Assembly: GCA_002772115.1 (NCBI GenBank)
Contig: PCRW01000053.1
Span: 1 to 35,544 of the forward strand
From: Candidatus Moranbacteria bacterium CG23_combo_of_CG06-09_8_20_14_all_35_22
GTDB taxonomy: Bacteria; Patescibacteriota; Minisyncoccia; Moranbacterales; UBA2206
DNA length: 35,544 nucleotides
Direction: 5' to 3'
Position 1 is the stretch's first letter; each line of letters opens with the position of its first letter. A program made the position numbers and the translations under genes. This document shows, piece by piece, positions 3,205-23,325 of this stretch. The notes below the pieces were generated by a model that saw only the letters and a program-made list of their open reading frames with translations, was not told the origin of the DNA and did no database searches.

Positions 3205-3213
3205 ATTATTCTT

Positions 3214-7100: not shown

Positions 7101-7139
7101 TTATCCACAACCTGAACTTGTTTTTATATTTTTATTTTT

Positions 7140-7150
7140 TGTGGTATAAT
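7140..7150 (+). promoter_or_regulatory. Extended -10 promoter candidate (TGTGGTATAAT) for the T4SS-like locus
   Basis: TGn-TATAAT at 7140-7150, 12 nt upstream of the ATG at 7163. This implies a very short or leaderless 5' UTR. A perfect DnaA-box 9-mer TTATCCACA lies at 7101-7109. Confidence 0.4.
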
Positions 7151-7162
7151 TCTAGCGAGATT

Positions 7163-8179
7163 ATGAAACTAAAAAATGTCAATGCAACGCTACTAATTTT
7201 TGCGGGCTTATTGTGTTTAAACTTGGCTTTTTTTGCCGTCGCTTTGGAAAATCCCAATGGCACAAAAAATGTTTTTTTAGACAGTGATCAAGACGGACTG
7301 CTTGACACGGAAGAAAAAACTTATGGCACCAATCCAAAAAATCCGGATACGGACAATGATGGTTATTCCGACGGCGCGGAAGTTTCCGCTGGCTATAATC
7401 CGCTAATAAAAGCCCCAGGGGACAAACTTTCCGATTCCGCCAAAACAAAAACTGCTGTGATTTCTGATTCTTCCGGAGAAAAACAAAATTTGACTCAAGA
7501 AGTGGCACAAAAGATATCTGTACTCGCTAGTCAAGGCACTGCCGAAGACCAAGAAATGGGAATGGAAGATATCCAGACTATCCTCGATTCAGTTATGGAT
7601 GGTCAGGATTTTGAAAATGAATTGCCCAAAATTTCCCGCGAGGATATCAAAATTTTAGAGCAAAATTATGGTAACTTAAGTAAGGAAAAAGCTACAGAAA
7701 GAAGAAAGGATGATGCCACCGACTATGCCGTTTCTGTCCTTTACGTTTTTGCTAGCAACTCTCCAGAACCGCTCACTTCTTCCACTGACACCGCTTTGCT
7801 TTTAAATAAAATGATCGAAAAAATCGTTTCCGCTTTGACAACTGGAGATCCGGAAATTCTTGATGATTTGAGCGAAAGCGGACAAAAAATCAATGAACAA
7901 TTGAAAGAAGTGGAAGTGCCGGAAGATATGGCCGATACGCAAATCAAAGCTCTGCAATACGCTCTTTATGCCCAAAAATTGAAAAATTCCATCAAACTTG
8001 ATCCAACTGACCCGCTGGCTAATTTATCTAACTATTCCAAAATTGGAAGTTTCGTCGAAAGTATCAATAATTTTTATAATGAAATTCAAAATCGACTAGA
8101 AGAATATGGCATTGATGATAAAGAAGTTCAAAATAGATTGGAAGATCAAGGCATTGATGGAGATATTTTTGGAAGCTAA
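7163..8179 (+). CDS. Secreted acidic protein with thrombospondin type-3-like Ca-binding repeats
   Basis: Signal/anchor MKLKNVNATLLIFAGLLCLNLAFFAVA, then DSDQDGLLDTEE..NPKNPDTDNDGYSDGAE (DxDxDG repeats), then an acidic helical remainder. The ORF-track N-terminus (7085-7162) is translation of the MITE end. Confidence 0.6.
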   Translation: MKLKNVNATLLIFAGLLCLNLAFFAVALENPNGTKNVFLDSDQDGLLDTEEKTYGTNPKNPDTDNDGYSDGAEVSAGYNPLIKAPGDKLSDSAKTKTAVISDSSGEKQNLTQEVAQKISVLASQGTAEDQEMGMEDIQTILDSVMDGQDFENELPKISREDIKILEQNYGNLSKEKATERRKDDATDYAVSVLYVFASNSPEPLTSSTDTALLLNKMIEKIVSALTTGDPEILDDLSESGQKINEQLKEVEVPEDMADTQIKALQYALYAQKLKNSIKLDPTDPLANLSNYSKIGSFVESINNFYNEIQNRLEEYGIDDKEVQNRLEDQGIDGDIFGS

Positions 8180-8191
8180 AAATATACTACT

Positions 8192-9103
8192 ATGTTATTT
8201 TATTCTAAACATAAAACTGCAAAAAAAATAATCTTGACTGTTTTTTTACTGGTGTTTTTTTGTTTTTTTAATATTTCTAAAACTCAAGCGGCTCTTTGGC
8301 CAGCAATAGATCCCGGCATCCAAACCGGACTAACTGAAATAATGAATTTAATTACTGAATCACTTGTGAGTGGTATAAGGCAACAATCTATTACCACATT
8401 GATTTCTCAAATTGACAACCTAGCCGGACAAGGCAACAACGGCCAGCCAGTGTTCATCACTAATTGGGAAGATTATCTGATTAATGAGCCAATGAACCAA
8501 ACCAACATCTATATGAATGATTATGTGAGCCAAATGACGCGTGGAAAAAATACTTATTCCGGCTATTCCACGGAAGGTTTTACCGGTCCAGCCAACTATT
8601 CCGCTGATCTTAGCCAATCTGTCAAACCGCTAAGTGATGAGGATGTTCCCCAAGTTACTTATGAAGGCGACCCATCGCAAATGCTTGACAGTGGAAATTT
8701 GAAAAATATGGAACTTTATCTTTCCGGCGTGAATAACCCATGGGCTTTTGATATAGCCGTTCAGGCCGAACAACAAAAAGTTTTTGAGAATAATAAACTT
8801 GAAGTTCAAAGTAAAGCCATAGCCAACCAAGGTTTCCCCGGTACAGAAACTAGTCCCGGTATTTTAGTCAAAGAAACAATGGCCAATGTTCAAGACATAC
8901 CTAATAAAGCCCTTGCTTCTGCTTCTAGTATCTCTGAATTAGTTTCTTCTTTAGTTTCCCAAATGATCAGCCGTTCCATCACCCAAGGATTTTCCAGTGT
9001 TCAAAGATCAATCTCCAAAAATTCCTCCTCCCAAAGTCGCTACAATTCCAGTGTCAACAGCGCCATTGAGGAAGACGGCCCAGGAGCGAGATTTAGCAAC
9101 TAG
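8192..9103 (+). CDS. Secreted hypothetical protein (signal peptide ...NISKTQA|AL), Ser/Asn/Gln-rich
   Basis: 303-aa ORF, 12 nt after the previous stop, with a clear N-terminal signal peptide. No family recognised. Confidence 0.5.
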   Translation: MLFYSKHKTAKKIILTVFLLVFFCFFNISKTQAALWPAIDPGIQTGLTEIMNLITESLVSGIRQQSITTLISQIDNLAGQGNNGQPVFITNWEDYLINEPMNQTNIYMNDYVSQMTRGKNTYSGYSTEGFTGPANYSADLSQSVKPLSDEDVPQVTYEGDPSQMLDSGNLKNMELYLSGVNNPWAFDIAVQAEQQKVFENNKLEVQSKAIANQGFPGTETSPGILVKETMANVQDIPNKALASASSISELVSSLVSQMISRSITQGFSSVQRSISKNSSSQSRYNSSVNSAIEEDGPGARFSN

Positions 9104-9160
9104 AAAAAATTCCAATTTACAATTATCAATTTACAATTTTCAACCAATTTTCATTTTTCA
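9104..9160. repeat. Left arm of the AT-rich inverted repeat flanking the four-helix-bundle gene
   Basis: caatttacaattatcaatttacaattttcaaccaattttca is complementary to (attgaaa)x3 at 9516-9542. The 9-mer AAAATTCCA occurs at 9106-9114 and again at 9535-9543. Confidence 0.55.
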
Positions 9161-9517
9161 ATGATAAAATTTTCAAAACAATACGATTTAGAAAAAAGAA
9201 CTGGAGATTTCGGCATAGAAATCATAAAATTTTGTAAAACATCTCAACAAGATATTATAACAAAACCAATCTTAAACCAACTAATAAGATCGGGAACAAG
9301 TATTGGCGCTAATTATTGCGAAGCTAATAATGCCAGTTCTAAAAAAGATTTTAAGAATAAAATTTTTATCTGTAAAAAAGAATGTCAAGAAACAAAACAT
9401 TGGCTAAGGATGTCATCAGAATGTCTGCCTGAAAGAAAAGAAGAAATAAGAATTCTCTGGAAAGAATGTCAAGAGCTTACTATGATTTTCCAAAAAATAA
9501 TAAATTCTATGCAATAA
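9161..9517 (+). CDS. Four-helix-bundle protein ('23S rRNA-intervening-sequence protein' / Avd-like family)
   Basis: 118 aa. Hallmark blocks QLIRSGTSIGANYCEANNASSKKDFKNKIFICKKECQETKHWLRM, characteristic of this family. Confidence 0.85.
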   Translation: MIKFSKQYDLEKRTGDFGIEIIKFCKTSQQDIITKPILNQLIRSGTSIGANYCEANNASSKKDFKNKIFICKKECQETKHWLRMSSECLPERKEEIRILWKECQELTMIFQKIINSMQ

Positions 9518-9542
9518 TTGAAAATTGAAAATTGAAAATTCC
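9516..9542. repeat. Right arm: (attgaaa)x3 heptamer repeat
   Basis: aattgaaaattgaaaattgaaaattcc, the reverse complement of the caattttca motifs at 9135-9157. Confidence 0.55.
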
Positions 9543-9551
9543 ATAATACAC

Positions 9552-11771
9552 ATGTCTCAACAAACCCACATAAAAACAAATACCTATAAAATATTCCTAG
9601 TAATCTTTTTTCTTCTAGTGTTTGGTTTTGGGTTTGGGAAAGGGGAGAAGGCAAAGGCAGATGATGCAGATGATATTGGTGATTGTTCTTATAAATGTTC
9701 ATGGTATACACCTCTAGATAGTTTTGGCTATAAAAAAGAAGGAATTAAATCTAGTGAATGTTTTGACATATGTAAAAATCCAACAAAAAATGAATGCAAT
9801 GAAGATTTAATAGCTAAAGGTGATGGTTATTTTACACAACAGTATTGTTTATTTGATAAAGCTGGCGATTTTAGTCCTACCAAAACAGTACCGACATCTG
9901 GAAAATCCACCTCTTGTTCCGGCACAGATTGGGTATCCCACCCAGTAGACTGTTCTCTCCTTATGCTTCTTAATTTTTTTATATGGCTAATGCAATTAGC
10001 TAGTGCTCTCTTTGGCTGGATAATGGTTCCTGATAACATTACTACTATTCTTAGTAGTAAAGCAATTTACAACGCTTGGACATTAGTGCGCGATACGCTA
10101 AATGTTTTCTTTATTATGTTTTTGCTTTTTTCCGCTTTTGCCACCGTTTTTCAAATTGACAAATACAGCTACAAAAAAACACTATTAATGATTGTCCTTA
10201 TGGCGCTTTTAGTCAATTTTAGCTTCCCAATTTCTCGATTTATCATCGATATTTCCAATATGATGATGTTTTATTTTGCCAGCGCTTTAGATATTCCCAT
10301 TGAAGATGGAAAAATAATGGTTGGTTTTGCCAGTGCCGCTAAATTACCGGGAATTCTTTATCAAAATCTAGGCAATGCCGGAACAGCTCTACTTGCAGCC
10401 GTTATTTTTGTTTTTATTTTCACCGTAACTATCTTGACTATTTCCGTTCTTTTCCTTATTCGCACCATTGCCTTGGCAATTTTAATTGTTTTTTCTTCGC
10501 TGGCTTTTGTCGGCACTGCCATTCCACCACTTTCTTCTTATGCCAGTGACTGGTGGAAGAAACTTTTCAGTTATGCTTTTTTTGGACCAGTGATGCTTTT
10601 TATGATGTATATTGCATCATATTTAATGAATGAGATTGGAAGCACAGGAACAGCTACTATGGAAAAAATCGCCACCGCAAATTCAACAATTCCAGAATTA
10701 ATTGCTAATATGTCTTTTTTTGCCATCCCGATCGTCCTTCTTTGGCTCGGTCTCGGTGTCGCTCAATCAATGAGCATCGCCGGCGCCAGCATGGTCGTCG
10801 GCAAAGCGCAAGGGTTCATGAAAGGGGCAGGGAAGTGGACAGCAGGAGCACCTTGGAAAGTTGCTAAAATGTCTGGTATCCCAGGTGGAGCACAAGCGGG
10901 CTGGAAAAATTTCAGAAAAACTGGAAAATTATTTGGTGGAAAAGTGCCTCTTTATGGCGGATCTGACGCACAAGAAGCAAGAGAAGCAAAATTTGGTGGA
11001 GTATTTAAAGATGGTAGAAAGGGTTGGACAGAGGCTAAAGTTGAACTAGAAAGAACAAGAGCAAATAAACTTAGAAAAGATTGGAAAGATCAAGGCGCTA
11101 TTGATAAAGATTCTGTTTATAAAAAATTGGAAAGTACGAATCCAACAGAACAAAAAGCTGCTGCTCTAGAAATAGCTGAAAATCATAGTTTTGAAAGTTA
11201 TGAACAATTCAAAAAAGCTTCCACAGCTATCGGCAATGATCCTGTTTTCAAAAAAATATTTGATGATAAAGCAAAAGAAAAACATATTAACTTTGTTGCT
11301 AAAGCTAAAATTGAGGAGGAAGAGAAAAAAACAGGAAAACCTCTTAATTATAATGAAAAACAAGACATTTACAATGAACATTTTGATAAGCTTGATAATA
11401 AGAAATGGGCTTCTCAAATAAATCTAATGCCAAAAGACGAAAAGGGTAAGCCATTAGAAGAAAGTGAATTTGTCAAAGAATATATCAAAGAAAATATTGC
11501 GTCACATTACCCCACTCATCAAGATATTTTCAAAAATCTAAAAGGCGTCAATAAAAAACAATGGGCTGATGCGGGTTTAGCGCCAACTGAAAAAAGAAAT
11601 AGCGATGAAACATCTCAATCCGCTAGAAGCAATGAAGATATTCAAAGAGAAATGAAACAAAAAAATCAAGAAAGAATGGATAATGAAAATGAATTCAAAC
11701 AATCACATGAAGACATACAAAAAGAAAGAGCAAGAAAAGCACAAGAAGAAATAAATAAACAAAATATTTAA
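9552..11771 (+). CDS. VirB6/TrbL-like polytopic membrane protein with a Cys-rich exodomain and a long Lys/Glu-rich C-terminal tail
   Basis: Signal/TM, then a Cys-rich ~100-aa segment, about 7 TM helices and a ~300-aa highly charged tail. Sits upstream of the PrgI-like and VirB4 genes. The call rests on topology and context, not on a recognised motif. ATG at 9552 preferred over the TTG at 9525, which lies in the repeat. Confidence 0.5.
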   Translation: MSQQTHIKTNTYKIFLVIFFLLVFGFGFGKGEKAKADDADDIGDCSYKCSWYTPLDSFGYKKEGIKSSECFDICKNPTKNECNEDLIAKGDGYFTQQYCLFDKAGDFSPTKTVPTSGKSTSCSGTDWVSHPVDCSLLMLLNFFIWLMQLASALFGWIMVPDNITTILSSKAIYNAWTLVRDTLNVFFIMFLLFSAFATVFQIDKYSYKKTLLMIVLMALLVNFSFPISRFIIDISNMMMFYFASALDIPIEDGKIMVGFASAAKLPGILYQNLGNAGTALLAAVIFVFIFTVTILTISVLFLIRTIALAILIVFSSLAFVGTAIPPLSSYASDWWKKLFSYAFFGPVMLFMMYIASYLMNEIGSTGTATMEKIATANSTIPELIANMSFFAIPIVLLWLGLGVAQSMSIAGASMVVGKAQGFMKGAGKWTAGAPWKVAKMSGIPGGAQAGWKNFRKTGKLFGGKVPLYGGSDAQEAREAKFGGVFKDGRKGWTEAKVELERTRANKLRKDWKDQGAIDKDSVYKKLESTNPTEQKAAALEIAENHSFESYEQFKKASTAIGNDPVFKKIFDDKAKEKHINFVAKAKIEEEEKKTGKPLNYNEKQDIYNEHFDKLDNKKWASQINLMPKDEKGKPLEESEFVKEYIKENIASHYPTHQDIFKNLKGVNKKQWADAGLAPTEKRNSDETSQSARSNEDIQREMKQKNQERMDNENEFKQSHEDIQKERARKAQEEINKQNI

Positions 11772-11781
11772 AAAAAATATA

Positions 11782-12900
11782 ATGTTAGATACTCAAACAA
11801 AAATAATTAGAAGTTGTTATTTTCCTATGATGGTTTCTAAATATACTGGGAGAGATGATTCTAGTGAAGAAATTTTAGAAAGATGGGAGAAATTTGATCT
11901 GCTTTCAGAAGATAATAAAGATTTGTTAATTTCAGAACATATAGCTATCACAATAAGAAAACTATGTTTAAATTTTTCCTTATCTATTGAATCATCAAGA
12001 AAAATTTCCCGGGCTATTCGCAGTTTTTATTTTGGAGAAATTCAACTACAAGATTTTCCGCAGATATTATCCAAAGAAATGAATGTTGATTTTGCCACGG
12101 CGCAAAAAATATCTGAAGTTATTATCCAAAAAATAATCAACGATGATTCTCAAGAAAAAGCCTACCAAGCCCAGCTGGAAAAATTACCCCTTTCCAGCGC
12201 CATTCAAAAATTCCCCCCTCTTGGCGAACAACTACTTACTTCGGCGAAAATTAAGCTAAAAAATTTCCCAGAACCGGTCCGGCCGTCGATCAATAATTGG
12301 CTTTCCGATTATACTTTTAGTCTTGGCTATGAGTCGCATAGCGCCATGGATCGTGGAACATATCTTTTTAGAAACGAAAATGCCCGACTGCTAAATTCCA
12401 TGGATCGAGAAAAGCTTTCCTATCTTTTGAAAGCTTATGATGAAAACTCACCCGTGGACATCAACATCAACACCAGCCAAATAATTTTCCCGAGACACGA
12501 AACAAGGAACAGTGAACAAGGAACAGTGAACAATATTCAAAGAACAATAAACAATGAACAACGAGCAAGAATCAATGATCAAAGAACAATAATCAACGAG
12601 CAACGAACAACGAGCAATAATAATTCTGTTTTATCGCAACCAAAATCTCCCTTTCAAGAAATATATAATGCCAAACCACAAGCAACTCAACCCAAAGATA
12701 TTTTCGAAGAAGAAAGAACAGCCACCCAAAAAAGAAACACCGCCAATTTGAGTTTCAGTTCTCCACAAAAATTTCCTTATGAAAAACAAACTATCCAACA
12801 GCAAAAAACGCCTCAAGGTCCCGAACCCTTACATATCTCCTCCCAAAAACTCCGCCATGACCCAGTCCCGCCGGGAAATGTTGTCAATTTAAAAAACTAG
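11782..12900 (+). CDS. Hypothetical cytoplasmic protein with a low-complexity Asn/Gln/Arg/Thr-rich C-terminal half
   Basis: 372-aa ORF, 10 nt after the previous stop. No TM helices and no recognised family. Confidence 0.45.
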   Translation: MLDTQTKIIRSCYFPMMVSKYTGRDDSSEEILERWEKFDLLSEDNKDLLISEHIAITIRKLCLNFSLSIESSRKISRAIRSFYFGEIQLQDFPQILSKEMNVDFATAQKISEVIIQKIINDDSQEKAYQAQLEKLPLSSAIQKFPPLGEQLLTSAKIKLKNFPEPVRPSINNWLSDYTFSLGYESHSAMDRGTYLFRNENARLLNSMDREKLSYLLKAYDENSPVDININTSQIIFPRHETRNSEQGTVNNIQRTINNEQRARINDQRTIINEQRTTSNNNSVLSQPKSPFQEIYNAKPQATQPKDIFEEERTATQKRNTANLSFSSPQKFPYEKQTIQQQKTPQGPEPLHISSQKLRHDPVPPGNVVNLKN

Positions 12901-13024
12901 GCTTTACTAAATACGAAATAAGCTAAATACTAAAAAATCCTTTCGTATTTCGTTTATTTCGTATTTGGTAAAACTTAGTATTTAGTAAAATTTAGTATTT
13001 CGTTTATTTCGTATTTAGTAAAAC
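12901..13024. repeat. 124-bp intergenic repeat unit A (tactaaatacgaaataagc family)
   Basis: The left arm tttactaaatacgaaataagctaaatactaaa pairs with tttagtatttcgtttatttcgtatttagtaaa. The unit starts right after the stop codon and ends 6 nt before the next ATG. Confidence 0.85.
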
Positions 13025-13030
13025 AATAAA

Positions 13031-13426
13031 ATGTTATTTAACGTCCCACAATTCATCGACATCGAAGATAAGATTGTTGGTCCACTTACCGCCAAGCAAC
13101 TTGGCTGGCTGGGCATTGCCGGCGTTTTGCTTTTGATTTTCTGGAGCACGCTCACTTTTTCCACTTTTCTTCCGCTGGCTTTCATCACACTGGGAATTTT
13201 TGGTGCGTTGGCATTTTACCGACCGTACAACCAACCCCTTTTGAATTTTTTGATGTCAGGCGTAAATTTTTTTCTAAAACCAAAAATCTATGTTTGGAAG
13301 CGATATTATGATAGTATGAAAGCAGTCAAAAAAACTGAAAAAACAACCGAAGAAATTATTGTCAAAAGAAAAGTTTTAGATAATAAAAAATTAGAAGAAT
13401 TGGCGAAAAGACTAAATCAGAAATAG
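13031..13426 (+). CDS. PrgI family protein (VirB3-like small T4SS membrane component)
   Basis: MLFNVPQFIDIEDKIVGPLTAKQLGWLGIAG followed by two TM helices is the characteristic PrgI-family N-terminus. Lies upstream of VirB4. Confidence 0.75.
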   Translation: MLFNVPQFIDIEDKIVGPLTAKQLGWLGIAGVLLLIFWSTLTFSTFLPLAFITLGIFGALAFYRPYNQPLLNFLMSGVNFFLKPKIYVWKRYYDSMKAVKKTEKTTEEIIVKRKVLDNKKLEELAKRLNQK

Positions 13427-13550
13427 GCTTTACTAAATACGAAATAAGCTAAATACTAAAAAATTCTTTCGTATTTCGTTTATTTCGTATTTAGTAAAAC
13501 TTAGTATTTAGTAAAATTTAGTATTTCGTTTATTTCGTATTTAGTAAAAC
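13427..13550. repeat. 124-bp intergenic repeat unit B
   Basis: Identical to unit A at 122 of 124 positions (hand alignment), in direct orientation. Confidence 0.85.
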
Positions 13551-13554
13551 ATTT

Positions 13555-14244
13555 ATGGAATTTCTACACTCAAAAAAACTCTCCACCGAACCATCATCTT
13601 CACCTACTCAAAAATATTTGGATGTAGCCGAAGTGAAAGATGATGTGATTGTTTTGAAATCGGGCGCTCTGCGTTCCATTTTGGCTGTGTCCGCTATAAA
13701 TTTTGATCTAAAATCCACTGACGAACAAGAAGCTATCATTTCTCAATATCAAAATTTTCTCAACTCCGTCGATTTTCCAGTGCAAATTTTGATCAGCTCA
13801 AGAAAATTAGATATGCGAAATTATTTTGAATTTATCACTAGCAAAGAAAAAACTCAATCTAGCGAACTTCTCCGACTTCAACTTAGCGAGTATAAAAATT
13901 TCATTGAACAATTAGTCAAGGGCTCGGATATTATGGAAAAAAATTTCTACATCATCGTGCCATTTTCACCGATTGAAAATAAAAAAAAAAGTTTTTTCTC
14001 TAACATTGGCAGTTTATGGAACCCCCAAAAAAACATTTTAGAAAAAAGAGAGAATTTTGAAACTTATAAAAATCAACTCCTCCAAAGAATTGATCACATC
14101 ATCGCCGCTTTGTCTGGCATCGGTCTGCGCATTGTTCCCCTCAAGACTGAAGAACTAATTGAATTGTTATTTGATTCATACAATCCGGAAATTTTCAACG
14201 CCACCGGATTGAAAGATGTGAGTAAATTAGAACTAACGAAATAG
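13555..14244 (+). CDS. Hypothetical T4SS-associated cytoplasmic protein (possible ATPase-less VirB4 N-domain-like protein)
   Basis: 229 aa, no TM helix and no Walker motifs. The segment YLDVAEVKDDVIVLKSGALRSILAVSAINFDLKSTDEQEAIISQYQNFLNSVDFPVQILI resembles the pattern at the N-terminus of VirB4/TrbE/TraC proteins (from memory). Confidence 0.4.
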   Translation: MEFLHSKKLSTEPSSSPTQKYLDVAEVKDDVIVLKSGALRSILAVSAINFDLKSTDEQEAIISQYQNFLNSVDFPVQILISSRKLDMRNYFEFITSKEKTQSSELLRLQLSEYKNFIEQLVKGSDIMEKNFYIIVPFSPIENKKKSFFSNIGSLWNPQKNILEKRENFETYKNQLLQRIDHIIAALSGIGLRIVPLKTEELIELLFDSYNPEIFNATGLKDVSKLELTK

Positions 14245-14352
14245 TCCTTTACTAAATACGAAATAAGCGAAATACGAAAGAATTGTTTTTTTAGTATTTA
14301 GTTTATTTAGTATTTAGTAAAATTTAGTATTTCGCTCATTTCGTAGTTCATA
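14245..14352. repeat. Intergenic repeat unit C (diverged member of the same family)
   Basis: tcctttactaaatacgaaataagcgaaatacgaaag ... tttagtatttagtaaaatttagtatttcgctcatttcgtag. Confidence 0.7.
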
Positions 14353-14360
14353 AAGAAATT

Positions 14361-16199: not shown

Positions 16200-16278
16200 G
16201 TTTTACTAAATACCCGCCTCGACTCGCAAGACGATTGCTCGTCGACGCGAGGCTGGCGAAATAAGCTAAATACTAAAG
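16200..16278. repeat. Left arm of repeat unit D, itself interrupted by a 44-nt GC-rich hairpin (16214-16257)
   Basis: ttttactaaatac[ccgcctcgactcgcaagacgattgctcgtcgacgcgaggctggc]gaaataagctaaatactaaag. The bracketed insert recurs at 29047-29091. Confidence 0.8.
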
Positions 16279-16665
16279 ATGATAAAGAAAATTGATTTGA
16301 TTTATGCTGATGAATGTTATGAAATAATGGGAATAGCTTTCGATGTTTTTAAGAAATTAGGATTTGGTCATAAAGAAAATATTTATCAGAAAGCGCTAGC
16401 AACTAATTTTAAAGAAAGAAATTTTAAATTTAAAGAACAGTTGCGATACAATTTGAAATACAAGGATGAAACTTTGGGAGTTTATATTTTAGATTTTTTG
16501 CTTTTTGATAAAATTGTTTTGAAAATAAAACAAAAGGATTTCATTTCTGAAAAAGATATAGATCAAGTTTATAGGTATCTTAGAGCCACGCATTTAAAGC
16601 TCGGAATAATACTTACTTTTACCAAAAAAGGTGCCTGTTTTAAAAGAATAGTTAATTTAAAATAA
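16279..16665 (+). CDS. GxxExxY family protein (PD-(D/E)XK nuclease-like superfamily)
   Basis: 128 aa. Literal motif G-HK-E-NI-Y in FGHKENIYQKAL, and YILDFLLFDKIVLKIK as in this family. Confidence 0.85.
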   Translation: MIKKIDLIYADECYEIMGIAFDVFKKLGFGHKENIYQKALATNFKERNFKFKEQLRYNLKYKDETLGVYILDFLLFDKIVLKIKQKDFISEKDIDQVYRYLRATHLKLGIILTFTKKGACFKRIVNLK

Positions 16666-16700
16666 TTTTAGTATTTCGTTTATTTCGTATTTAGTAAAAC
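16666..16700. repeat. Right arm of repeat unit D
   Basis: ttttagtatttcgtttatttcgtatttagtaaaac, identical to the right arm of units A and B and complementary to 16203-16278. Confidence 0.8.
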
Positions 16701-16701
16701 T

Positions 16702-17211
16702 ATGTCTTACGACCCACAAAAACAAAAAAATCTTCATAATGAACGGCAAACTGACCAAGCTGAAAAAGAAAAAGAGGCGAGTGATTCAGAAAAAGAAAAA
16801 TCGCCCCAAAAACCCCGCCGTTCTTTGGGAAATTTAGCCAAAAAAATTCTACCACCGATTTCCCAAATGAAATTTTCCGATTCGGCTATTTTTGTCGCTC
16901 TTGGTGCTGCCGGATTTAAGGATTTACTCGATTTAATCTCCTTAACTGGCATAGGTTATTTTCTTGTAATAATTATGACCTTTCTGATTTTTATCTTTAT
17001 CGGCTTTATGATCCTTTTGACCATTATGTCGGGCGGAGGGGGAGGATTCTGGATACTACTGATACTTTTTGGCGGAGCTGGCATAGAACTTCTACCCGGT
17101 ATAGATTTTCTACCTGTTACAATGGCCACTGTAATTATGATTTATCTTAGAATTTTATCCAAAAGAAGAAAGAACCAAGAAAAAATGCAAGCCCAAGAAA
17201 GCTACGCTTAA
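16702..17211 (+). CDS. Small membrane protein with a charged N-terminal tail, 3-4 TM helices and a poly-Gly loop
   Basis: 169-aa ORF. Lys/Glu-rich N-terminus, hydrophobic core with a GGGGGF loop, basic C-terminus. No family recognised. Confidence 0.45.
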   Translation: MSYDPQKQKNLHNERQTDQAEKEKEASDSEKEKSPQKPRRSLGNLAKKILPPISQMKFSDSAIFVALGAAGFKDLLDLISLTGIGYFLVIIMTFLIFIFIGFMILLTIMSGGGGGFWILLILFGGAGIELLPGIDFLPVTMATVIMIYLRILSKRRKNQEKMQAQESYA

Positions 17212-17218
17212 CTGGAAA

Positions 17219-17256
17219 TTGGAGACTAAATCTCCAATTGGAGATTTAGTCTCCAA
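17219..17256. repeat. 38-nt perfect palindrome TTGGAGACTAAATCTCCAATTGGAGATTTAGTCTCCAA, copy 1
   Basis: Verified by hand as its own reverse complement. Identical 38-mer at 23280-23317. Confidence 0.9.
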
Positions 17257-17271
17257 AGTTTCCAAAAAACC

Positions 17272-17943
17272 ATGCAACATTATCCTAAAAAAAATCTATC
17301 CTCTTTTCTGCTGGAAAATAAAGAAACTGTCATCACTTCTTTGGTGATTGTTTTTTGTCTAGCTTTATCTGTTTTTTTTCCAACAAAAAATTCTGCCCAA
17401 CTTTTCACGAGCAATATTTTTTTCTTAGTTATTATTCCGATTCTTTATTATAAATTAATTTTAAAAAGAAAAATATCGGAACTAGGTTTGGTATTAAATG
17501 ACAAAAAAATTGGATTTTTTTGGGGAGCTTTGATGTTTCTTGTCAATCTGATAATTTTTTATCTTCTTTATCAGTTTACCGATTTTAACCACAATTATCT
17601 TCTTTCCTCCTATATTGTGCATAACTTTTGGATTTTCCTGTTTTATGAGATTTTAGTGGCTAATATGTTTGTTTTTATCCAAGAATTTTTTTGGCGAGGC
17701 TTTATTTTACTTTATTTTTCTAGAAAAATTGGCCTTTTGGCGATTTTTTTGCAATTTATTATTTTTGTAGGAGTGATACTTCTAATCTCACAAAATTCTT
17801 TTTGGCAAATGGCGCCCACTCTCGTAATTTCTCTAACTTCTGGTATAATTGTATATAAGAGCCGATCAATTTTTTATTCTTGGATTTTTTCCTTACTGTC
17901 AATTTTAATTTTAGATAGTTTTATAATTTATCATTTAAAATGA
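17272..17943 (+). CDS. CPBP (CAAX protease/Abi)-like polytopic membrane protein with degenerate catalytic motifs
   Basis: IQEFFWRGFIL resembles CPBP motif 1 (EExxxR), but with QE. The positions expected for the FxxxH and HxxxN motifs carry no His. About 6-7 TM helices. Confidence 0.4.
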   Translation: MQHYPKKNLSSFLLENKETVITSLVIVFCLALSVFFPTKNSAQLFTSNIFFLVIIPILYYKLILKRKISELGLVLNDKKIGFFWGALMFLVNLIIFYLLYQFTDFNHNYLLSSYIVHNFWIFLFYEILVANMFVFIQEFFWRGFILLYFSRKIGLLAIFLQFIIFVGVILLISQNSFWQMAPTLVISLTSGIIVYKSRSIFYSWIFSLLSILILDSFIIYHLK

Positions 17944-20708
17944 AAAATAAAAAAACCAAAAAAATAAATATTCTTTCCCACATTTTACTTATCCTTACAT
18001 TGTTTCTTTCTCCAATCAGCACTGCTTGGGCTATTGATGTAAACAAAATTATGGGCGTCCAATCACCTACTGAATTTATAGATAAAATTTTTTCCGATCT
18101 CGGCGTGGACAAAGAGCAAGTGAGATACGGCGCCCAAACTTTCAATGTCGCCAACAAAAAAAAGACTCCTCCCCAAGTTACGCTTTTTTTCAATCCAGCT
18201 AATCCAGACGAAGGGGAGAAAGTAACTGTCACCGCTTCTCCCAGCTATTTTCTCAACAATCCAGAAGAACTGTATTACACTTGGTTTTTAAAAACAGCAA
18301 ATTGCACTGATGAGGAAACAGATGACGATGATTATACATATAATTCAGAATGTGATTTGAATAATGACGGCGAAGTTGATATAGAAGATTACAAAATAAA
18401 AGCTATGAGAATCATTGTTAATGGCGGGTTTGATTATACTAGTGTTGACTATTCATCCAGTACTGACAGCAACAATGATAGTTATGATGCTTTTTCCGGT
18501 GGCAATGATCAAGAAGGTAAGACGGCATATTGTTATGTTCATGATATAAAAACAGGAGAAGAATATGCTCTGCCAAGTTGCGGTGATAATAAAACAGAAC
18601 AGCATCTTTTTGCTCACGCTGAATATGAAAATTTTATCGATAAAGACGGCAACCAAATTGATTTAGATGAAGAAACCGGCGATGATGATTTTGGCAGAGA
18701 TGAAGAAAAATTCTGGCATACTGATCCCAACAGCAATGACACTGCCAATTTGGGCCATTCCGATGAAGCTAATGTTGCCGGACTGGGCGTTTTGACCTTT
18801 TCTTGGAATTATCAAAAAGGCGACAAGGTCGGCGTAGTAGTGGAAGGAATTTCCACCGAACCAACCCAAACTGAAGACTCTTCATATAAAACTATGTGGG
18901 CAATGAACAAAGGAAATTACACTCTTGATGCTGATAATAATATTGGCAATGATTATCCCCAAACTACCACTACCACTACTATTACTGAAGATACTCCAGA
19001 AGTCGGTCAAACAACAACTGTCACCGTCACCACTCTTGAAGAATTATCAAACATTGTCAATGAAATAGCTACCATTGAAACGACCATTACCACTCAAACA
19101 GTAGTAACAGATTCCGCTGATCCAACCACCATAATAAGCGATGAAACAGAGGTTTCCAATTCAGCTGAAATAGAAAATATGGTGGGAGACTTTGATATTA
19201 GTAATGACGATATCGGATCTATAGAAAAACCTTCTGATCTTAACGATTTTCTTTACGACGCATTAGTTTCTCCCCAAGAAAATAGCGCTGGAAGCGACAA
19301 ACTTGATATCAGCCTTTCTTATTCTCCCACCAATCCAATCAATGATTCTTCTGGCGAAAGCGGAGACACTTTGATAATCCAATCTTCTATTCCTAACGCC
19401 AAAGATAATAATTATTTGCAATACAACTGGCAGGTTTTTTCCAGTGATGAAGTGAATCCTAATGACTGGGGAACTCCTTTGCTAAAATCAGATTTGAAAG
19501 AATCCACCCAGACAACTGGACTAGGCATTGATACTTTCAAATTTAAATTAGCTTTAAATGAACCAAAAAAATATCTGCGCATTCTTTTGACGGTCACGGA
19601 AAATGTCGGCGAAGAATATCCACGCTCCAGCCGACAAGATATTATCATCCCCATTATTTCTATGGATGCAAATGACCAAATAAGCACCCACAGTGTTTTG
19701 GCCGAAACAGATTCTATCCGTTCTGTTGAGGAAAATCCTTCCGGAGTAAATCTTAAGCTAGACGAAGAAATTTGCACAACAAATAATATAGATAGAGCGA
19801 TTTGTCCCGTAACAAAAAGTCAAATAATTGGCTTGTCTTTTCCAGCAGAGGACGAAGATAATTTTCCGTCCGGCATAACAGATTTTCTTTGGACCATTGA
19901 CGGTAAGCCAATCTCTTATTCTTTTTGTTTTTTTGATAATTGTAATCCAGAAAAACAAACTAACACCGCCTATTTTCCAATTCTCAAAGAAATCGGCGAG
20001 CAATATACTATCGGCTTTACTGCTACCAGCGCAGAAGGAGAAAAAATAAATTTGACCAAAATTTTCAAAGTCGTTGATCCAGAAATTGAGATTAATTTTG
20101 TTGATGATGTTTGTCCAAAAACCAATTCTAGTGATATTTGCCATCGAAATGTTTTAGGCAAATATTTTGATGTAAATAGCCAAGAATTTACCGATTATAG
20201 CAAACTTAATTTTTGGGCACGAAATGATTCTGACATCAAACTGGAAGCGGAAGTTACAGGCTTTTCTGCTTCGCCAGAAAGTTATAGCTGGAATATCGAC
20301 GGCCAAAATATTTCTGCTTCCAATGCTGATCTATATGGCTTTACAATTGATAGCGAAGGAATTCTCACTTTGCCTCCCAAAGAAATTCAAGGGGAAAGCT
20401 ATAATATAACAGTCGGCACTCTTTACACTCAAGAAAATTTAGTGAAAAAAGCGCTCAAAGATATTTGGGGCGTGACTTATAATCAGTTTTACGAAAAAAC
20501 CATTGCAGATGAAGCTATCATCACTATGATGGATGCCGAGGAAATTACTCAAGGACCGGCCAAAAAAATCTTCGCTTCTGTCTATTCCTCTGTTCCCAGT
20601 TATCTCGCTTTTCTTCTGCGAATAATCCTTACCATTTCCCTAATTTTATTCACCACTAAATTGATTTTCTCATTCTCCGCACCAATTAATTCGCGAGAAG
20701 AAAACTAA
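17940..20708 (+). CDS. 922-aa acidic, Thr-rich surface protein with signal peptide and C-terminal TM anchor
   Basis: Its ATG overlaps the previous stop (ATGA at 17940-17943). Signal peptide ...SPISTAWA. Dockerin/EF-hand-like DLNNDGEVDIED. Recurrent Y.W..DG strands (YYTWF, YNWQVF, FLWTIDGK, YSWNIDGQ) suggest Ig/PKD-like domains. TTTTTTIT run. C-terminal hydrophobic helix. Confidence 0.65.
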   Translation: MKNKKTKKINILSHILLILTLFLSPISTAWAIDVNKIMGVQSPTEFIDKIFSDLGVDKEQVRYGAQTFNVANKKKTPPQVTLFFNPANPDEGEKVTVTASPSYFLNNPEELYYTWFLKTANCTDEETDDDDYTYNSECDLNNDGEVDIEDYKIKAMRIIVNGGFDYTSVDYSSSTDSNNDSYDAFSGGNDQEGKTAYCYVHDIKTGEEYALPSCGDNKTEQHLFAHAEYENFIDKDGNQIDLDEETGDDDFGRDEEKFWHTDPNSNDTANLGHSDEANVAGLGVLTFSWNYQKGDKVGVVVEGISTEPTQTEDSSYKTMWAMNKGNYTLDADNNIGNDYPQTTTTTTITEDTPEVGQTTTVTVTTLEELSNIVNEIATIETTITTQTVVTDSADPTTIISDETEVSNSAEIENMVGDFDISNDDIGSIEKPSDLNDFLYDALVSPQENSAGSDKLDISLSYSPTNPINDSSGESGDTLIIQSSIPNAKDNNYLQYNWQVFSSDEVNPNDWGTPLLKSDLKESTQTTGLGIDTFKFKLALNEPKKYLRILLTVTENVGEEYPRSSRQDIIIPIISMDANDQISTHSVLAETDSIRSVEENPSGVNLKLDEEICTTNNIDRAICPVTKSQIIGLSFPAEDEDNFPSGITDFLWTIDGKPISYSFCFFDNCNPEKQTNTAYFPILKEIGEQYTIGFTATSAEGEKINLTKIFKVVDPEIEINFVDDVCPKTNSSDICHRNVLGKYFDVNSQEFTDYSKLNFWARNDSDIKLEAEVTGFSASPESYSWNIDGQNISASNADLYGFTIDSEGILTLPPKEIQGESYNITVGTLYTQENLVKKALKDIWGVTYNQFYEKTIADEAIITMMDAEEITQGPAKKIFASVYSSVPSYLAFLLRIILTISLILFTTKLIFSFSAPINSREEN

Positions 20709-20725
20709 AAACTAAAACAAACCCA

Positions 20726-21649
20726 ATGAAAACAAAAATTAAAATATTCTTTCTAGCTTTATTATTTTTAAATTTAATTCCTGCTTTTTGTTTGGCAGCG
20801 GATACATATGTTCCGATGGAAAAAATTCCGGGGTTTGAGGATCCGGCTGATTTTCCGACCTATTTGATGAACATTTATAAATTTGGCCTTGGCGCTATTG
20901 GAGTTTCGGCGATGTTTATGATTATGATTGGCGGATATATGTATCTCACTTCCGCCGGCAACACCGCCCAAACCGGCAAAGCCAAAGGAGTTATTTTCGA
21001 TGCCATCGCCGGACTAATTTTAGCCCTAGTTTCTTATGTTCTACTTTGGACAATTAATCCAGATTTAGTGAAATTTAAATCAATAACTAGTGGTACTACC
21101 ACTGGCGAAACAGGAACTACCGGCACAAGCGAATATGCGGGTTATAATGCCGCTTGCCCAGATCCAACTTCTAAAGTTCCTATTGATTTCTCTGAATCAC
21201 CAACAATAAGCGCCAGTTCTACTTGCAAAAACTTAATTCCTAATGATGTTAATGGAGTTTCAAAAGAAATATTAAGAACAATAGCCCAATTAGAATCATC
21301 TTGTGGAACAGATTCAAATGCAGAAAATTCGTCAGCAGAATGTTGTGGGATAATGCAACTCAAACCTGATACAGCAGGAATTTCCTGCTCAGAACTAGTT
21401 TCAAATAATACTGCGTCCATAGAAGCAGCCGCCAAATATATAAAAGATAATGCATCAAATCATGATGATGATCCTGTCAAAATTTTTGCTGGCTATAATA
21501 GTGGCTATGGCACAAGCGGTAGTGGCTCTCTTGCCCCAAGTGTAGATTGTCCAGGAAGTTTAAAATTTCAATGTTGTTATGACCCACAAGAACTAGATGA
21601 ATCAATCCATTACGCGTGGAAAGGTAATGGGATATATAAAGGTCAATAA
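20726..21649 (+). CDS. TrbC/VirB2-like T4SS pilin module fused to a C-terminal lytic transglycosylase (SLT, VirB1-like) domain
   Basis: Signal peptide plus two TM helices with IGGYMYLTSAGN..AKGVIFDAIAGLILAL, homologous to the next ORF. Thr/Gly linker. SLT motifs: QLESS (catalytic Glu-Ser), GIMQL and GYNSG. Confidence 0.7.
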   Translation: MKTKIKIFFLALLFLNLIPAFCLAADTYVPMEKIPGFEDPADFPTYLMNIYKFGLGAIGVSAMFMIMIGGYMYLTSAGNTAQTGKAKGVIFDAIAGLILALVSYVLLWTINPDLVKFKSITSGTTTGETGTTGTSEYAGYNAACPDPTSKVPIDFSESPTISASSTCKNLIPNDVNGVSKEILRTIAQLESSCGTDSNAENSSAECCGIMQLKPDTAGISCSELVSNNTASIEAAAKYIKDNASNHDDDPVKIFAGYNSGYGTSGSGSLAPSVDCPGSLKFQCCYDPQELDESIHYAWKGNGIYKGQ

Positions 21650-21658
21650 AAAAATCTT

Positions 21659-22108
21659 ATGTCAACTAAAATAAAACTCCTTATTTTTTTGTTATTTATT
21701 GGAATTTTTTTGCCAGTTTTTTCGACTTATTCCGCTGGACTTGTGCCTTGTGGATTAAACGAAGGAAAAGCGGAAGAAATGGCTCCTTGCACGCTTTGCC
21801 ACCTTATTATTGGAATTTTCAATATTTTTTCTTGGTTTAAAACTATCCTCATCACTGTCGCTGCGGTGGGAATTTTCATTGCGGGAGTGATGTATATCAT
21901 TTCTTCCGGAGACGAAGAAATGATGAAACGCGCCAAAAGCTTTCTCGCCACCAGTCTCACAGGCTTTACTATAGTTTTGGGTGCTTGGCTGATTGTCAAT
22001 TCCGTAATGTGGATTCTTGCCTATGATATTAAAAACTTAGACATCGAACAAGAAAATTGGTATACTTTCTCTTGCGATACAACCAGCACTGCTGATCCAA
22101 ATAAATAA
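21659..22108 (+). CDS. TrbC/VirB2-like T4SS pilin of the type common in Patescibacteria
   Basis: Signal peptide, GLVPCG...APCTLCH Cys motif, then two TM helices with AGVMYIISSGDEEMMKRAKSFL..GFTIVLGAWLIVNSV. Confidence 0.7.
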   Translation: MSTKIKLLIFLLFIGIFLPVFSTYSAGLVPCGLNEGKAEEMAPCTLCHLIIGIFNIFSWFKTILITVAAVGIFIAGVMYIISSGDEEMMKRAKSFLATSLTGFTIVLGAWLIVNSVMWILAYDIKNLDIEQENWYTFSCDTTSTADPNK

Positions 22109-22114
22109 ATTTTT

Positions 22115-23269
22115 ATGTCCATTCTTAAAAAAATATTTTTTTTATCTCTGTTTTTTCTTTTTCTCTCCACGCTTTTTTGGGGTATTTATATGCTGTCTTT
22201 CAAAAAAAATTTGCCAGTGGAAAATAAGTCGTCAATTGCAAAAAATCCACCCTCTTCTTTGGAAAATCCAGACGATAAACCTGCCCCTGAAGCAAAAATT
22301 TCCGTCATTTCTCAAGAATCCGTTCTTTCCCCCGTTCTTTCTCCGGATGAAAATTCTATTTGGTATTATTCTCTTTCCGGCGAACTGAAAGAAATTGATT
22401 TTTTTGGAAAAACTACTAAAAAACTCACTACTAAAAAAATTATCAATCTCATTGGAGCAATTTGGTCTCCAGATAAATCAAAAGCTCTCCTTGAAATCGG
22501 ACAAAATCATAAAACAGATTATCTTTTGCTTTTTGATCGCCCCAAAGACCAACTTATATTCTTAAACAAAAATATTAACTGCACTTCTTGGCTTGCATCT
22601 TCCGACAGAATAATTTACAAATATTTCGATTCAAAAAACAACCGGGGTTCACTCAACATTTCCGCTCCAGATGGAAGTAATTGGAAAAAACTACTTGATT
22701 TGCCTCACGATAAAATTGTTTTTTCCCAAATTCCCTTGTCCGGACTTATTTCCTTTTGGAATAACGGCGATGCTTATTATCCCACTCTTTTTCAGTCTAT
22801 GTCTCTAATCGGCGAGAATACAAAAACATTATCTCAAAACTACTTCGGTGCGGATTATCTTTGGAATCAATCTGGCAACCGAGTTTTAACTAGCCAAACA
22901 GACGCCCAAGGCGGAACTAAAATGCAACTAGGAGTAATGAACTACAACGGTGGAGAATACAAAAATCTGGGACTACCAACTTTTGTTTCCAAATGTCTTT
23001 GGTCAAAAGACAACGAAAATATTTATTGCGCTCTGCCAGGAAACATTCCGGACAATTCAATTTTGCCTAATGATTATAAACTGGGAAAATTCACCACCAC
23101 CGACACTTTTTGGAAAATCAACATTACTACGAGCGAAAAAACCCGCCTGCTGGAAACAAAAGACATCTCGGATTCTTTTGACGCCTCCGATTTTTTCGCC
23201 AGCACTGATGAAAGTTTGATTTTTTTCGTCAACAAAAAAGATGGGAAATTATACAAAATAGTTTTGTAG
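22115..23269 (+). CDS. Membrane-anchored TolB-like (PD40/beta-propeller-like) protein
   Basis: N-terminal TM helix. Repeated SPD...-type strands (LSPDENSIWYYS, IWSPDKSKALLE, WSKDNENIYCA) resemble PD40 repeats. Confidence 0.45.
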   Translation: MSILKKIFFLSLFFLFLSTLFWGIYMLSFKKNLPVENKSSIAKNPPSSLENPDDKPAPEAKISVISQESVLSPVLSPDENSIWYYSLSGELKEIDFFGKTTKKLTTKKIINLIGAIWSPDKSKALLEIGQNHKTDYLLLFDRPKDQLIFLNKNINCTSWLASSDRIIYKYFDSKNNRGSLNISAPDGSNWKKLLDLPHDKIVFSQIPLSGLISFWNNGDAYYPTLFQSMSLIGENTKTLSQNYFGADYLWNQSGNRVLTSQTDAQGGTKMQLGVMNYNGGEYKNLGLPTFVSKCLWSKDNENIYCALPGNIPDNSILPNDYKLGKFTTTDTFWKINITTSEKTRLLETKDISDSFDASDFFASTDESLIFFVNKKDGKLYKIVL

Positions 23270-23271
23270 AA

Positions 23272-23325
23272 GAGACAACTTGGAGACTAAATCTCCAATT
23301 GGAGATTTAGTCTCCAAGTTGTCTC
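23272..23325. terminator. 54-nt perfect palindrome (38-mer copy 2 extended by gagacaac/gttgtctc) between convergent operons
   Basis: Lies between the stop of the + locus (23269) and the stop of the - glycan cluster (23330). No canonical U-tract, so a terminator role is inferred from position only. Confidence 0.55.

Follow-up and report, generated by a model that had tools for sequence, protein, structure and literature searches.

The locus described here raises the question of whether a run of type IV secretion system (T4SS) genes that includes neither a relaxase nor a coupling protein is part of a conjugative element, a remnant of one, or a machine with another task. It lies at 7163-23269 on the forward strand of a 35,544-nucleotide stretch of DNA, analysed as a whole and called the window below, from Candidatus Moranbacteria bacterium CG23_combo_of_CG06-09_8_20_14_all_35_22 (contig PCRW01000053.1, assembly GCA_002772115.1). 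The T4SSs of Patescibacteria are thought to have a central part in the way these ultrasmall bacteria, with their poor biosynthetic capacity, live at the expense of other cells. The first-pass annotation of the window had interpreted the locus as a machine for host interaction or uptake, rather than conjugation, in a cell of Patescibacteria type. Our analysis supported this through VirB4 relatives from Moranbacteria and Parcubacteria, a housekeeping gene context and the lack of relaxase, type IV coupling protein (T4CP) and integrase domains in the window. We conclude that the locus is very probably a chromosomally fixed, vertically inherited T4SS of a Candidatus Moranbacteria-type patescibacterium, belonging to a Patescibacteria-specific lineage derived from the monoderm conjugation machinery of the mating-pair-formation type FATA (MPF-FATA). 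The direct observations behind this conclusion concern the gene set and its homologies, the intact ATPase and SLT motifs, the housekeeping, origin-proximal context and the conservation of gene order.

The ATPase of the system is encoded at 14361-16199 (+) and is a VirB4 without the N-terminal domain. We found that the protein matched the NCBIfam model "VirB4-like conjugal transfer ATPase, CD1110 family" with an E value of 4.1e-108 and 362.6 bits (cutoff 325), and that it covered profile positions 185-734 of 752, the N-terminal part being absent. A match to Pfam P-loop_TraG (2.4e-30) further bore out the original VirB4 call. Both nucleotide-binding motifs were intact, Walker B (IVLADE) as located by a motif script and Walker A (AKSGAGKS) as read from the translation. 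The second-best curated family was the VirB4 of Mycoplasma integrative and conjugative elements (ICEs), and both this and the CD1110 family, which are monoderm types, outscored the F-type and VirB4/CagE models. Directly upstream, the open reading frame (ORF) at 13555-14244 (+) encodes a separate protein homologous to the N-terminal domain of VirB4. This ORF had been left unassigned, and its NCBIfam matches revealed a TrsD-like protein: VirB4_plasma at 1.1e-10 (positions 87-238), TrsD/TraD at 6.8e-8, and positions 12-121 of the CD1110 model, all below the full-length cutoffs. In 76 of the 80 related loci introduced below, TrsD was likewise a separate ORF, of about 228 amino acids (aa). A virB4 gene split by the insertion of a hairpin was therefore ruled out, the more so as many of these loci have gaps of only 1-20 nucleotides (nt).

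The translocon genes lie upstream of this pair. A small PrgI/VirB3-like membrane protein is encoded at 13031-13426 (+), as had been proposed, with a Pfam PrgI match (2.6e-9) above the gathering score; family hidden Markov models (HMMs) placed its homologues in 71 of the 80 loci, in each case about 1.2 kb before virB4. The gene at 9552-11771 (+) encodes an extended VirB6/TrbL-like polytopic membrane protein, for which a transmembrane (TM) scan indicated a Cys-rich N-terminal exodomain, about six TM helices and a charged C-terminal tail of about 300 aa. Direct searches of this protein against Pfam and NCBIfam gave no match. When its positional orthologues were examined, 9 of the 46 sequences (45 extracted and the window protein) matched Pfam TrbL/VirB6, and two of them, from loci L066 (33.8 bits) and L058 (31.2 bits), exceeded the TrbL gathering score of 25.9 over nearly the whole profile. 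The membrane region of the window protein (aa 126-448) aligned to these two orthologues with E values of 6e-30 and 8e-39, respectively, and we accepted it as VirB6 because it aligns to orthologues that pass the TrbL gathering score. The first-pass assignment is thus upheld by transitive homology. The HMM search found the family in 49 of the 80 loci. When a profile built from the 46 orthologues was compared with the PDB, the matches were no more than coiled-coil noise of low complexity, arising from the charged tail, and were set aside.

Two genes further downstream supply pilin-like proteins, and here the earlier claim of two TrbC/VirB2-like pilins was borne out, with a weaker match for one of them. 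The product of 21659-22108 (+), with a signal peptide and two TM helices, matched Pfam T4SS_pilin (PF18895) at 8.2e-8 and 32.7 bits, above the gathering score of 26.6. It carries four invariant cysteines (C31, C44, C47 and C139) and matches the Mbov_0395 pilin-like family weakly (3.5e-4). In the product of 20726-21649 (+), a VirB2-like pilin module (aa 28-120) is fused to an SLT lytic transglycosylase of VirB1 type. Its T4SS_pilin match (1.9e-4, 21.9 bits) falls below the gathering score. The SLT domain, which had also been called, was recovered at 1.3e-9 with its ES, GIMQ and GYNSG motifs all intact. The pilin module of this protein was conserved in 31-36 of the 80 loci. The SLT fusion part aligned fully only in L060, L063 and L010, with most of the SLT part aligning in L005; judged from these alignments, the pilin-SLT fusion is restricted to a few close relatives. 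Profile searches supported the PrgI and pilin assignments and, transitively, that of VirB6.

We then asked how far this arrangement is shared. Thousands of VirB4 homologues exist, and the best 120 were 79-93% identical to the window protein; the named entries among these 120 came from Candidatus Moranbacteria/Moraniibacteriota, Parcubacteria or Patescibacteria. The synteny set comprised 80 species-representative loci scored by tblastn and family HMMs, and it revealed a near-universal core with accessory genes layered by clade. The core consists of PrgI, TrsD and VirB4 (71, 76 and 80 of the 80 loci) and is usually followed by the family of the gene at 16702 (57 loci, at +1.8 kb). VirB6 and the family of the gene at 11782 (55 loci) precede the core in all clades but one, and in the exceptional clade two pilin genes stand upstream in their place. 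In the clade with 70-72% VirB4 identity, the pilin genes precede prgI, and neither VirB6 nor 11782 homologues could be detected in a range of 10 kb. A CPBP-like protein (42 loci) and a 922-aa protein (39 loci) form a downstream pair confined to two clades, the former always paired with the latter as the next gene. The TSP3 and propeller proteins, the downstream pilin pair and the 8192 family are confined to the closest clade (VirB4 identity of at least 77%), in which the full order of 13 genes recurs together with the KsgA/UbiA flank and, in most members, the Wzy flank as well. DNA of the sister species L060 aligned to the window in blocks that were about 77-95% identical. Because the gene order and the flanks are conserved in about a dozen species-level relatives, we conclude that the locus has been inherited vertically rather than as a mobile element. 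We also observed that genes for a ComM-type ATPase, a G5/DPBB (RlpA-like) protein and KsgA (window 1675-5124) keep their linkage with the T4SS among relatives, on its upstream side in the clade of the window but immediately after virB4-16702 in the clade whose VirB4 identity is 70-72% (loci L014-L028).

The genomic setting was examined in the window, which is nearly the entire source contig (35.7 kb), and every absence reported here applies to this contig. The ORF list of the window contains 15 ORFs at 7163-23269, all on the + strand, which confirmed the co-directional run described earlier; the count given then, about 14, is close to this number, two of the 15 being inserted small ORFs. The junctions are tight at about half of the positions, and the description of the block as tightly spaced fails at six gaps of 57-130 nt, which are occupied by repeated hairpin elements or by arms that bracket the inserted ORFs. 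Housekeeping genes lie on both sides. The upstream flank encodes UPF0102, a DksA-type zinc finger protein, LspA, a ComM-type Mg-chelatase-family ATPase, the G5/DPBB protein, KsgA (4285-5124) and UbiA. Downstream are two Wzy-like proteins, two GT2 glycosyltransferases, a flippase, Jag, YidC, RnpA, L34, DnaA, DnaN and a thioredoxin-reductase-like flavoprotein, with the origin-proximal genes rnpA, rpmH, dnaA and dnaN within 30582-34169 and dnaA about 8 kb from the T4SS locus. The GC content of the window is about 35%, and that of the T4SS block is the same as that of its flanks. The last T4SS gene and a Wzy-like gene are convergent, with the palindrome at 23272-23325 between them. Near the end of the contig, the ORF at 35279-35476 contains FSSAGVGCYGF, which resembles the N-terminus of a C5 DNA methyltransferase, and gave no Pfam match at E ≤ 0.001.

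At the start of the block, the first-pass annotation had noted an extended -10 promoter, and the sequence TGTGGTATAAT is indeed present at 7140-7150 (+), 12 nt 5' of the first ATG, both on direct reading and in a promoter scan with the TG extension. It is no more than a candidate promoter, because promoter-like sites in the region are no commoner than in shuffled sequence (58 found, 54 expected).

These observations bear on the possibility that the block is the mating-pair-formation module of an ICE or plasmid, with its relaxase, origin of transfer (oriT) and coupling protein on another contig. In the window, no domain of a coupling protein (VirD4/TcpA/FtsK-type), relaxase, VirB11 or integrase was found in any ORF of at least 60 aa, and their reported absence therefore holds for this contig. 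No oriT was identified in the window, where recognition would need the relaxase family as a guide, and the locus shows no att-like boundary, integrase or GC shift. A mobile element could be argued from the VirB4 family, to which ATPases of Firmicutes and Mycoplasma conjugative elements also belong, and from the plasmid matches, most of which are to conjugative plasmids. The 35.7-kb contig is also a small part of the genome. Quinonero-Coronel et al. (2025, PMC12102498), in a survey that took in 3,035 genomes of Patescibacteria, found VirD4-like genes in 2,918 of them, although near virB4 in only 148 cases. Set against this are the housekeeping genes on both sides and the short distance to dnaA, the vertical descent indicated by the conserved flanks and gene order, and the rarity of relaxases in the same survey (103 of the 3,035 genomes, with only 15 cases near virB4). 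The palindromes of the window could be mistaken for oriT-like sites, but they are multi-copy repeats absent from most relatives. We consider a mobile element highly improbable, and favour a T4SS fixed in the chromosome.

The block also encodes a series of accessory proteins. The first-pass annotation had regarded this set as unusual, a view that the HMM scan of the 80 loci overturned: the accessory genes are a conserved feature of the lineage and not peculiar to this locus, and their families keep dozens of invariant residues. Its estimate that about half of the components have no assignable function fits the six families that lack a solid function by sequence or fold. The first gene (7163-8179, +) encodes a secreted or anchored TSP3-repeat (calcium-binding) protein with an N-terminal hydrophobic segment and a helical C-terminal part. 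Pfam TSP3_bac matched at 2.4e-11, as expected from the original call, and the family profile found no sequence match in the PDB. The family occurs in 13 of the 80 loci, only in the closest clade and always as the first gene of the block. Its likely start is the ATG at 7163, since the upstream GTG extension overlaps a repeat arm and the orthologue consensus begins MKxKN. The next gene (8192-9103, +) encodes a secreted protein with an N-terminal hydrophobic segment and a Ser/Asn-rich tail, for which neither Pfam nor NCBIfam gave an assignment and the profile had no PDB match; it was likewise found in 13 loci of the closest clade. At the other end of the block, the gene at 22115-23269 (+) encodes an N-terminally anchored protein that had been called a TolB-like propeller. 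The TolB resemblance was found to be weak (TIGR02800 at 0.0024; TolB at 0.011 in the profile search of the PDB, along with WD40 matches), and from these matches the protein, whose family is present in 16 loci, is probably a beta-propeller.

Two further families are more widely distributed. The gene at 11782-12900 (+) encodes a cytoplasmic protein of orphan fold without a TM segment, and in the 55 loci that have it, it always lies between virB6 and prgI. Structure models and fold searches were made for this protein and for that of the gene at 17940. The AlphaFold2 (AF2) model of the 11782 protein had a predicted local distance difference test (pLDDT) score mostly above 90 over the ordered residues 1-240, followed by a disordered Q/N/P-rich tail, and the fold search of this model returned nothing significant in the PDB or BFVD (best E values of 0.2 and 0.16). 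Weak fold matches to DNA-binding helical proteins were scattered, all with E values above 1, and were not used. The 42 orthologues likewise gave no Pfam or PDB sequence match, and a profile search against the PDB found none. An exhaustive profile search recovered 678 clusters at 50% identity with E ≤ 1e-30, and all members with a source name were annotated "hypothetical". A degenerate direct repeat of 14-nt period (42-nt unit) occupies 12487-12619, in the 3' part of the ORF; the Q/N/R/T-rich disordered tail that it encodes differs greatly in length from one orthologue to another. The gene at 16702-17211 (+), directly 3' of virB4 in most relatives, encodes a small polytopic membrane protein according to the TM scan. 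This family had no Pfam match and nothing meaningful in a profile search of the PDB. The idea that it might be a cryptic pilin or a PrgI paralogue was ruled out by hhalign, with probabilities of about 1%.

The remaining two accessory genes form the downstream pair. The first (17272-17943, +) encodes a degenerate six-TM protein of the CPBP/Rce1-like type, with a Pfam Rce1-like match (4.4e-5) just above the gathering score. Among the motifs EExxxR, FxxxH and HxxxN/D, only the first is represented, as QEFFWR, with E138 conserved, and no histidine was conserved at 85% or more across 39 sequences. This agrees with the degenerate CPBP-like protein described earlier; on its motifs, it is probably a relative of the CPBP family and unlikely to be a canonical protease. 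The second (17940-20708, +) encodes a 922-aa surface protein with a signal peptide and a C-terminal TM anchor. The AF2 model, built on an alignment of 68 sequences, had a mean pLDDT of 82.9 and predicts that the protein folds as a membrane-anchored chain of immunoglobulin (Ig)-like domains. Foldseek matched this Ig/cadherin-like chain of beta-sandwiches to protocadherin and cadherin chains, Bacteroides SGBP-B, the S-layer protein SbsB and an RTX adhesin, with E values down to 6e-8; the TM-scores were low, as expected for a flexible multidomain rod. The family profile found no match in a PDB sequence search, and all homologues were annotated "hypothetical". There are 49 invariant columns over 34 orthologues, and by this alignment the conservation exceeds what a rapidly varying adhesin would usually show.

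Two of the 15 ORFs, together with a number of repeats, have been inserted into the block. The ORF at 9161-9517 (+) encodes a four-helix-bundle "23S rRNA intervening sequence" protein (Pfam 23S_rRNA_IVP 2.8e-15, TIGR02436 1.6e-22) and is flanked by arms at 9121-9143 and 9518-9540 that are 91% complementary. Tblastn matches to it were found in 3 of the 80 loci only, and none in the sister species L060. The ORF at 16279-16665 (+) encodes a GxxExxY/PD-(D/E)XK_3 protein (Pfam PDDEXK_3 7.1e-28, TIGR04256 3.7e-28) and sits in the loop between a left arm at 16200-16277 and a right arm at 16667-16699; at this position L060 has 105 nt and the window 502 nt. Both ORFs are missing from L060; they are insertions of the rRNA intervening-sequence type and not parts of the T4SS. 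Furthermore, we found three strongly folding families of palindromic repeats in and around the locus; a search against Rfam assigned none of them to a family and gave only sub-threshold miRNA-hairpin noise.

The first family is a hairpin with an extra arm, built of 32-nt arms. A complete copy at 12895-13025 has a predicted RNA fold of -38.6 kcal/mol (z -6.9), a second at 13421-13551 is 98% identical to it (z -7.2), and a third lies in the trsD-virB4 gap at 14247-14355 (z -5.7). Sequence and repeat analysis showed that the arms at 16200-16277 and 16667-16699 belong to the same element and that the left one is interrupted by a GC-rich hairpin at 16214-16254. The 32-nt arm is present in nine copies, in the gaps around prgI, trsD and virB4 and nowhere else in the window. 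Among the relatives only L060 shares these hairpins, and in many of them the corresponding gaps measure 1-20 nt. A role as a conserved regulatory part of the operon was therefore ruled out. From their sequence, the hairpins look like recent insertions, similar in appearance to repetitive extragenic palindromes (REPs) or miniature inverted-repeat transposable elements (MITEs), and they could affect mRNA processing. The second family is the 54-nt perfect palindrome at 23272-23325 (-45.2 kcal/mol, z -11.7), which was correctly reported but does not form a unique boundary: its 38-nt core (23280-23317) also occurs in the middle of the locus, at 17216-17256 (core 17219-17256; -34.6 kcal/mol, z -9.6). 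The 54-nt palindrome has no U-tract on the + strand, and none of the 80 related loci contained the 38-nt palindrome. The third is a MITE-like element of about 121 nt with 26-nt GC-rich terminal inverted repeats, observed at 6981-7101, between ubiA and the T4SS, and at 31135-31256, between rpmH and dnaA. Both copies lie in divergent intergenic regions, and the first creates a spurious GTG-extended ORF from 7085.

A block that harbours two selfish small ORFs and several palindromic elements might be the remains of a conjugation system that no longer functions, is in decay and has been interrupted by selfish elements, and the CPBP-like protein that has lost its canonical histidines and the VirB4 that lacks its N-terminal domain could be taken in the same sense. 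However, all insertions are intergenic and none disrupts a gene, the TrsD/VirB4 split is ancestral as judged by the separate TrsD of the relatives, and the catalytic motifs are intact. VirB4 is 79-93% identical across many species, the accessory proteins have kept their invariant residues, and very small patescibacterial genomes retain the T4SS almost universally (PMC12102498). Decay is therefore an extremely remote prospect.

How, then, might a chromosomal T4SS of this composition work? Going by the component families, a VirB4 hexamer together with the separately encoded TrsD would dock at the membrane through PrgI/VirB3 and the extended VirB6, which would form the translocon, and would energise assembly and transport there. 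The two Sec-exported VirB2-like pilins may build a pilus or tube, and the SLT domain tethered to one pilin module may open peptidoglycan. The anchored rod of Ig-like domains, the TSP3 protein and the propeller protein may act in the envelope or in contact with a partner cell. From work on Saccharibacteria and the lack of a relaxase, we infer that the machine would serve interaction with a host cell, by import or export of macromolecules at the episymbiont-host interface, rather than conjugative self-transfer.

Several points weigh against this interpretation. The locus is coupling-protein-less as far as this contig goes, and a T4CP or relaxase may be encoded on other contigs. A VirB8-like scaffold (PrgL/TraM, NTF2-like) had no Pfam, NCBIfam or PDB sequence match among the window proteins, in a check by sequence profiles for which the single-pass proteins of 8192 and 22115 were the candidates. 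VirB6 is identified transitively, and for six families (8192, 11782, 16702, 22115, the CPBP-like protein, and 7163 apart from its TSP3 repeats) the only tie to the machine is their conserved position. The hairpins in the middle of the locus could split the block into several transcription units. The role of the Moranbacteria T4SS is predicted here from its genes, which set neither its substrate nor the direction of transport, and an episymbiotic lifestyle of this lineage is assumed.

The same machine could instead be a dedicated device for DNA or RNA uptake, comparable to Helicobacter ComB or the Ced system of Sulfolobales, and would then import nucleic acids of the host as a source of nucleotides. 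Such a device would fit a window without relaxase or T4CP and the linkage that the ComM-type ATPase gene and the locus keep among relatives. The 2025 survey put forward an import of DNA or of other macromolecules, and noted competence and recombination genes close to T4SS loci of the class ABY1 (PMC12102498). A 2026 preprint links parasitism in Minisyncoccota to the acquisition of host RNA and describes tubular structures at the parasite-host interface, suggested to be T4SS pili. On the other hand, the matches to archaeal importers stay far from family level in NCBIfam (47.1 bits for CedB, where the cutoff is 700, and 21.2 bits for CedD, where it is 600), the composition is not of ComB type, no DNA-binding component was identified, and nothing in the sequence favours import over export. 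In the saccharibacterium Southlakia epibionticum, moreover, the T4SS is essential irrespective of uptake through ComEC, and the export of proteins was judged no less possible (PMC10633639, PMC12857230). We regard a dedicated uptake device as rather unlikely, and keep to a host-interaction T4SS of unspecified cargo.

The residual value of the locus lies in its conserved, unassigned accessory proteins. Candidates for the missing parts of the machine are the cytoplasmic 11782 protein, the near-universal 16702 protein, the Ig-like rod paired with the CPBP-like protein, and the pilin-SLT fusion. It is conceivable, with a probability that we put low, that the Moranbacteria T4SS has recruited such proteins as new parts: the 11782 protein as a substrate receptor or adaptor in place of the coupling protein, the CPBP-like protein and the Ig-like rod as an envelope-spanning contact or pilus-base module, and the pilin-SLT fusion at the tip or base of the pilus, breaching the wall of the partner.

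Lastly, the locus was compared with known systems. The Bordetella Ptl, Brucella VirB and Helicobacter ComB systems resemble it in being relaxase-free, and in some cases coupling-protein-free, and serve protein export or DNA uptake, not conjugation. They differ in being phylogenetically distant MPF-T systems of diderms, built with VirB11 and a core of VirB7-10, and none of these parts is present in the window. The monoderm MPF-FATA systems, namely the Trs system of pGO1/pSK41, the Prg system of pCF10, the CD1110-type conjugative transposons (CTns) of C. difficile and the Mycoplasma ICE, share with the window a CD1110-family VirB4, PrgI/VirB3, VirB6 and a cell-wall hydrolase. In pGO1 TrsD is free-standing as in the window, and neither MPF-FATA nor the window has an outer-membrane core. 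In contrast to these systems, the window has no T4CP, relaxase or oriT, is not on a mobile element and contains VirB2-like pilins, and it lacks a PrgB-type adhesin and a recognisable VirB8-like protein (PrgL/TraM).

Among plasmid-borne VirB4 proteins the nearest, with 27-36% identity, all belonged to the monoderm phyla Bacillota or Actinomycetota. Together with the names of the top 120 matches and the monoderm type of the best curated families, this is consistent with a place of the window protein in the Patescibacteria VirB4 clade nested within MPF-FATA. Outside Patescibacteria, the VirB4 closest to that of the window (35.7% identity) is encoded on a megaplasmid of Pontibacillus sp. ALD_SL1 (NZ_CP062975, 351.8-361.4 kb; L081 9474-19027), in an order like that of the window: two pilin-like genes of the Mbov_0395 family, a 779-aa hypothetical protein, a PrgI-like protein, a TrsD-like protein, VirB4 and a peptidoglycan hydrolase. 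HMMs of the window families matched this locus at 4e-13, 9e-10 and 3e-45. Its hydrolase is an M23 metallopeptidase, whereas that of the window is an SLT enzyme, and its replicon is a Bacillota megaplasmid typed as non-mobilizable. No counterparts of the 11782, 16702, CPBP-like, Ig-rod, TSP3 or propeller families were found in the Pontibacillus locus, which adjoins flagellar genes. Because it has pilin-like genes, by sequence homology VirB2-like pilins are not exclusive to Patescibacteria among monoderm FATA-type systems, and the comparison suggests that the layout of pilins plus TrsD also exists in some Bacillota and Mycoplasma-ICE-type systems. Loci of these two groups with TrsD and pilin-like genes are possible outgroups for the origin of the system.

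The closest agreement is with the T4SS of Patescibacteria themselves. The survey of 3,035 genomes described a monophyletic VirB4 clade nested in MPF-FATA, and reported the architecture, the absence of relaxases and the proximity to dnaA for more than 2,400 patescibacterial genomes (PMC12102498). The commonest partner of virB4 there was TrsD, followed by PrgI/VirB3, VirB6 and VirB2-like pilins (PF18895); VirB1 homologues were linked to virB4 mainly in the class Paceibacteria, and the loci were sited near dnaA, dnaN, rnpA, rpmH and ksgA (PMC12102498). The window has the same chromosomal neighbourhood, the same VirB4 with separate TrsD, PrgI/VirB3, VirB6 and PF18895 pilins, and a virB4-linked VirB1-type hydrolase as in Paceibacteria, again with no relaxase and no neighbouring T4CP. 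The Southlakia T4SS also resembles Gram-positive conjugative systems, with essential pilins and no recognisable coupling or relaxase proteins (Wang et al. 2023, PMC10633639). Transposon sequencing showed that this T4SS and its pilins, and not the t4cp gene, are essential for epibiotic growth (PMC10633639). Its locus (SEML1_0006-0019) has an array of six pilins, whereas the window has two pilin genes, one with its module fused to SLT. In a 2025 review, the patescibacterial T4SSs are recognised as forming a new branch within the superfamily (PMC12857230). Because the window matches the published patescibacterial T4SS feature by feature, the inference of the first-pass annotation is a rediscovery of a class published in 2023-2025 (PMC10633639, PMC12102498, PMC12857230). 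The window goes beyond the main text of the 2025 survey (PMC12102498), in which we found no mention of Moranbacteria-specific accessory families, in several partners: the orphan-fold 11782 protein, the degenerate CPBP-like protein with the 922-aa Ig-like rod, the TSP3 protein and the propeller protein. In summary, the locus is a clean, fully syntenic Moranbacteria example that leaves the general picture of the patescibacterial T4SS unchanged and adds to it the 11782 orphan-fold family, the predicted Ig-domain model of the 922-aa protein and the pilin-SLT fusion.

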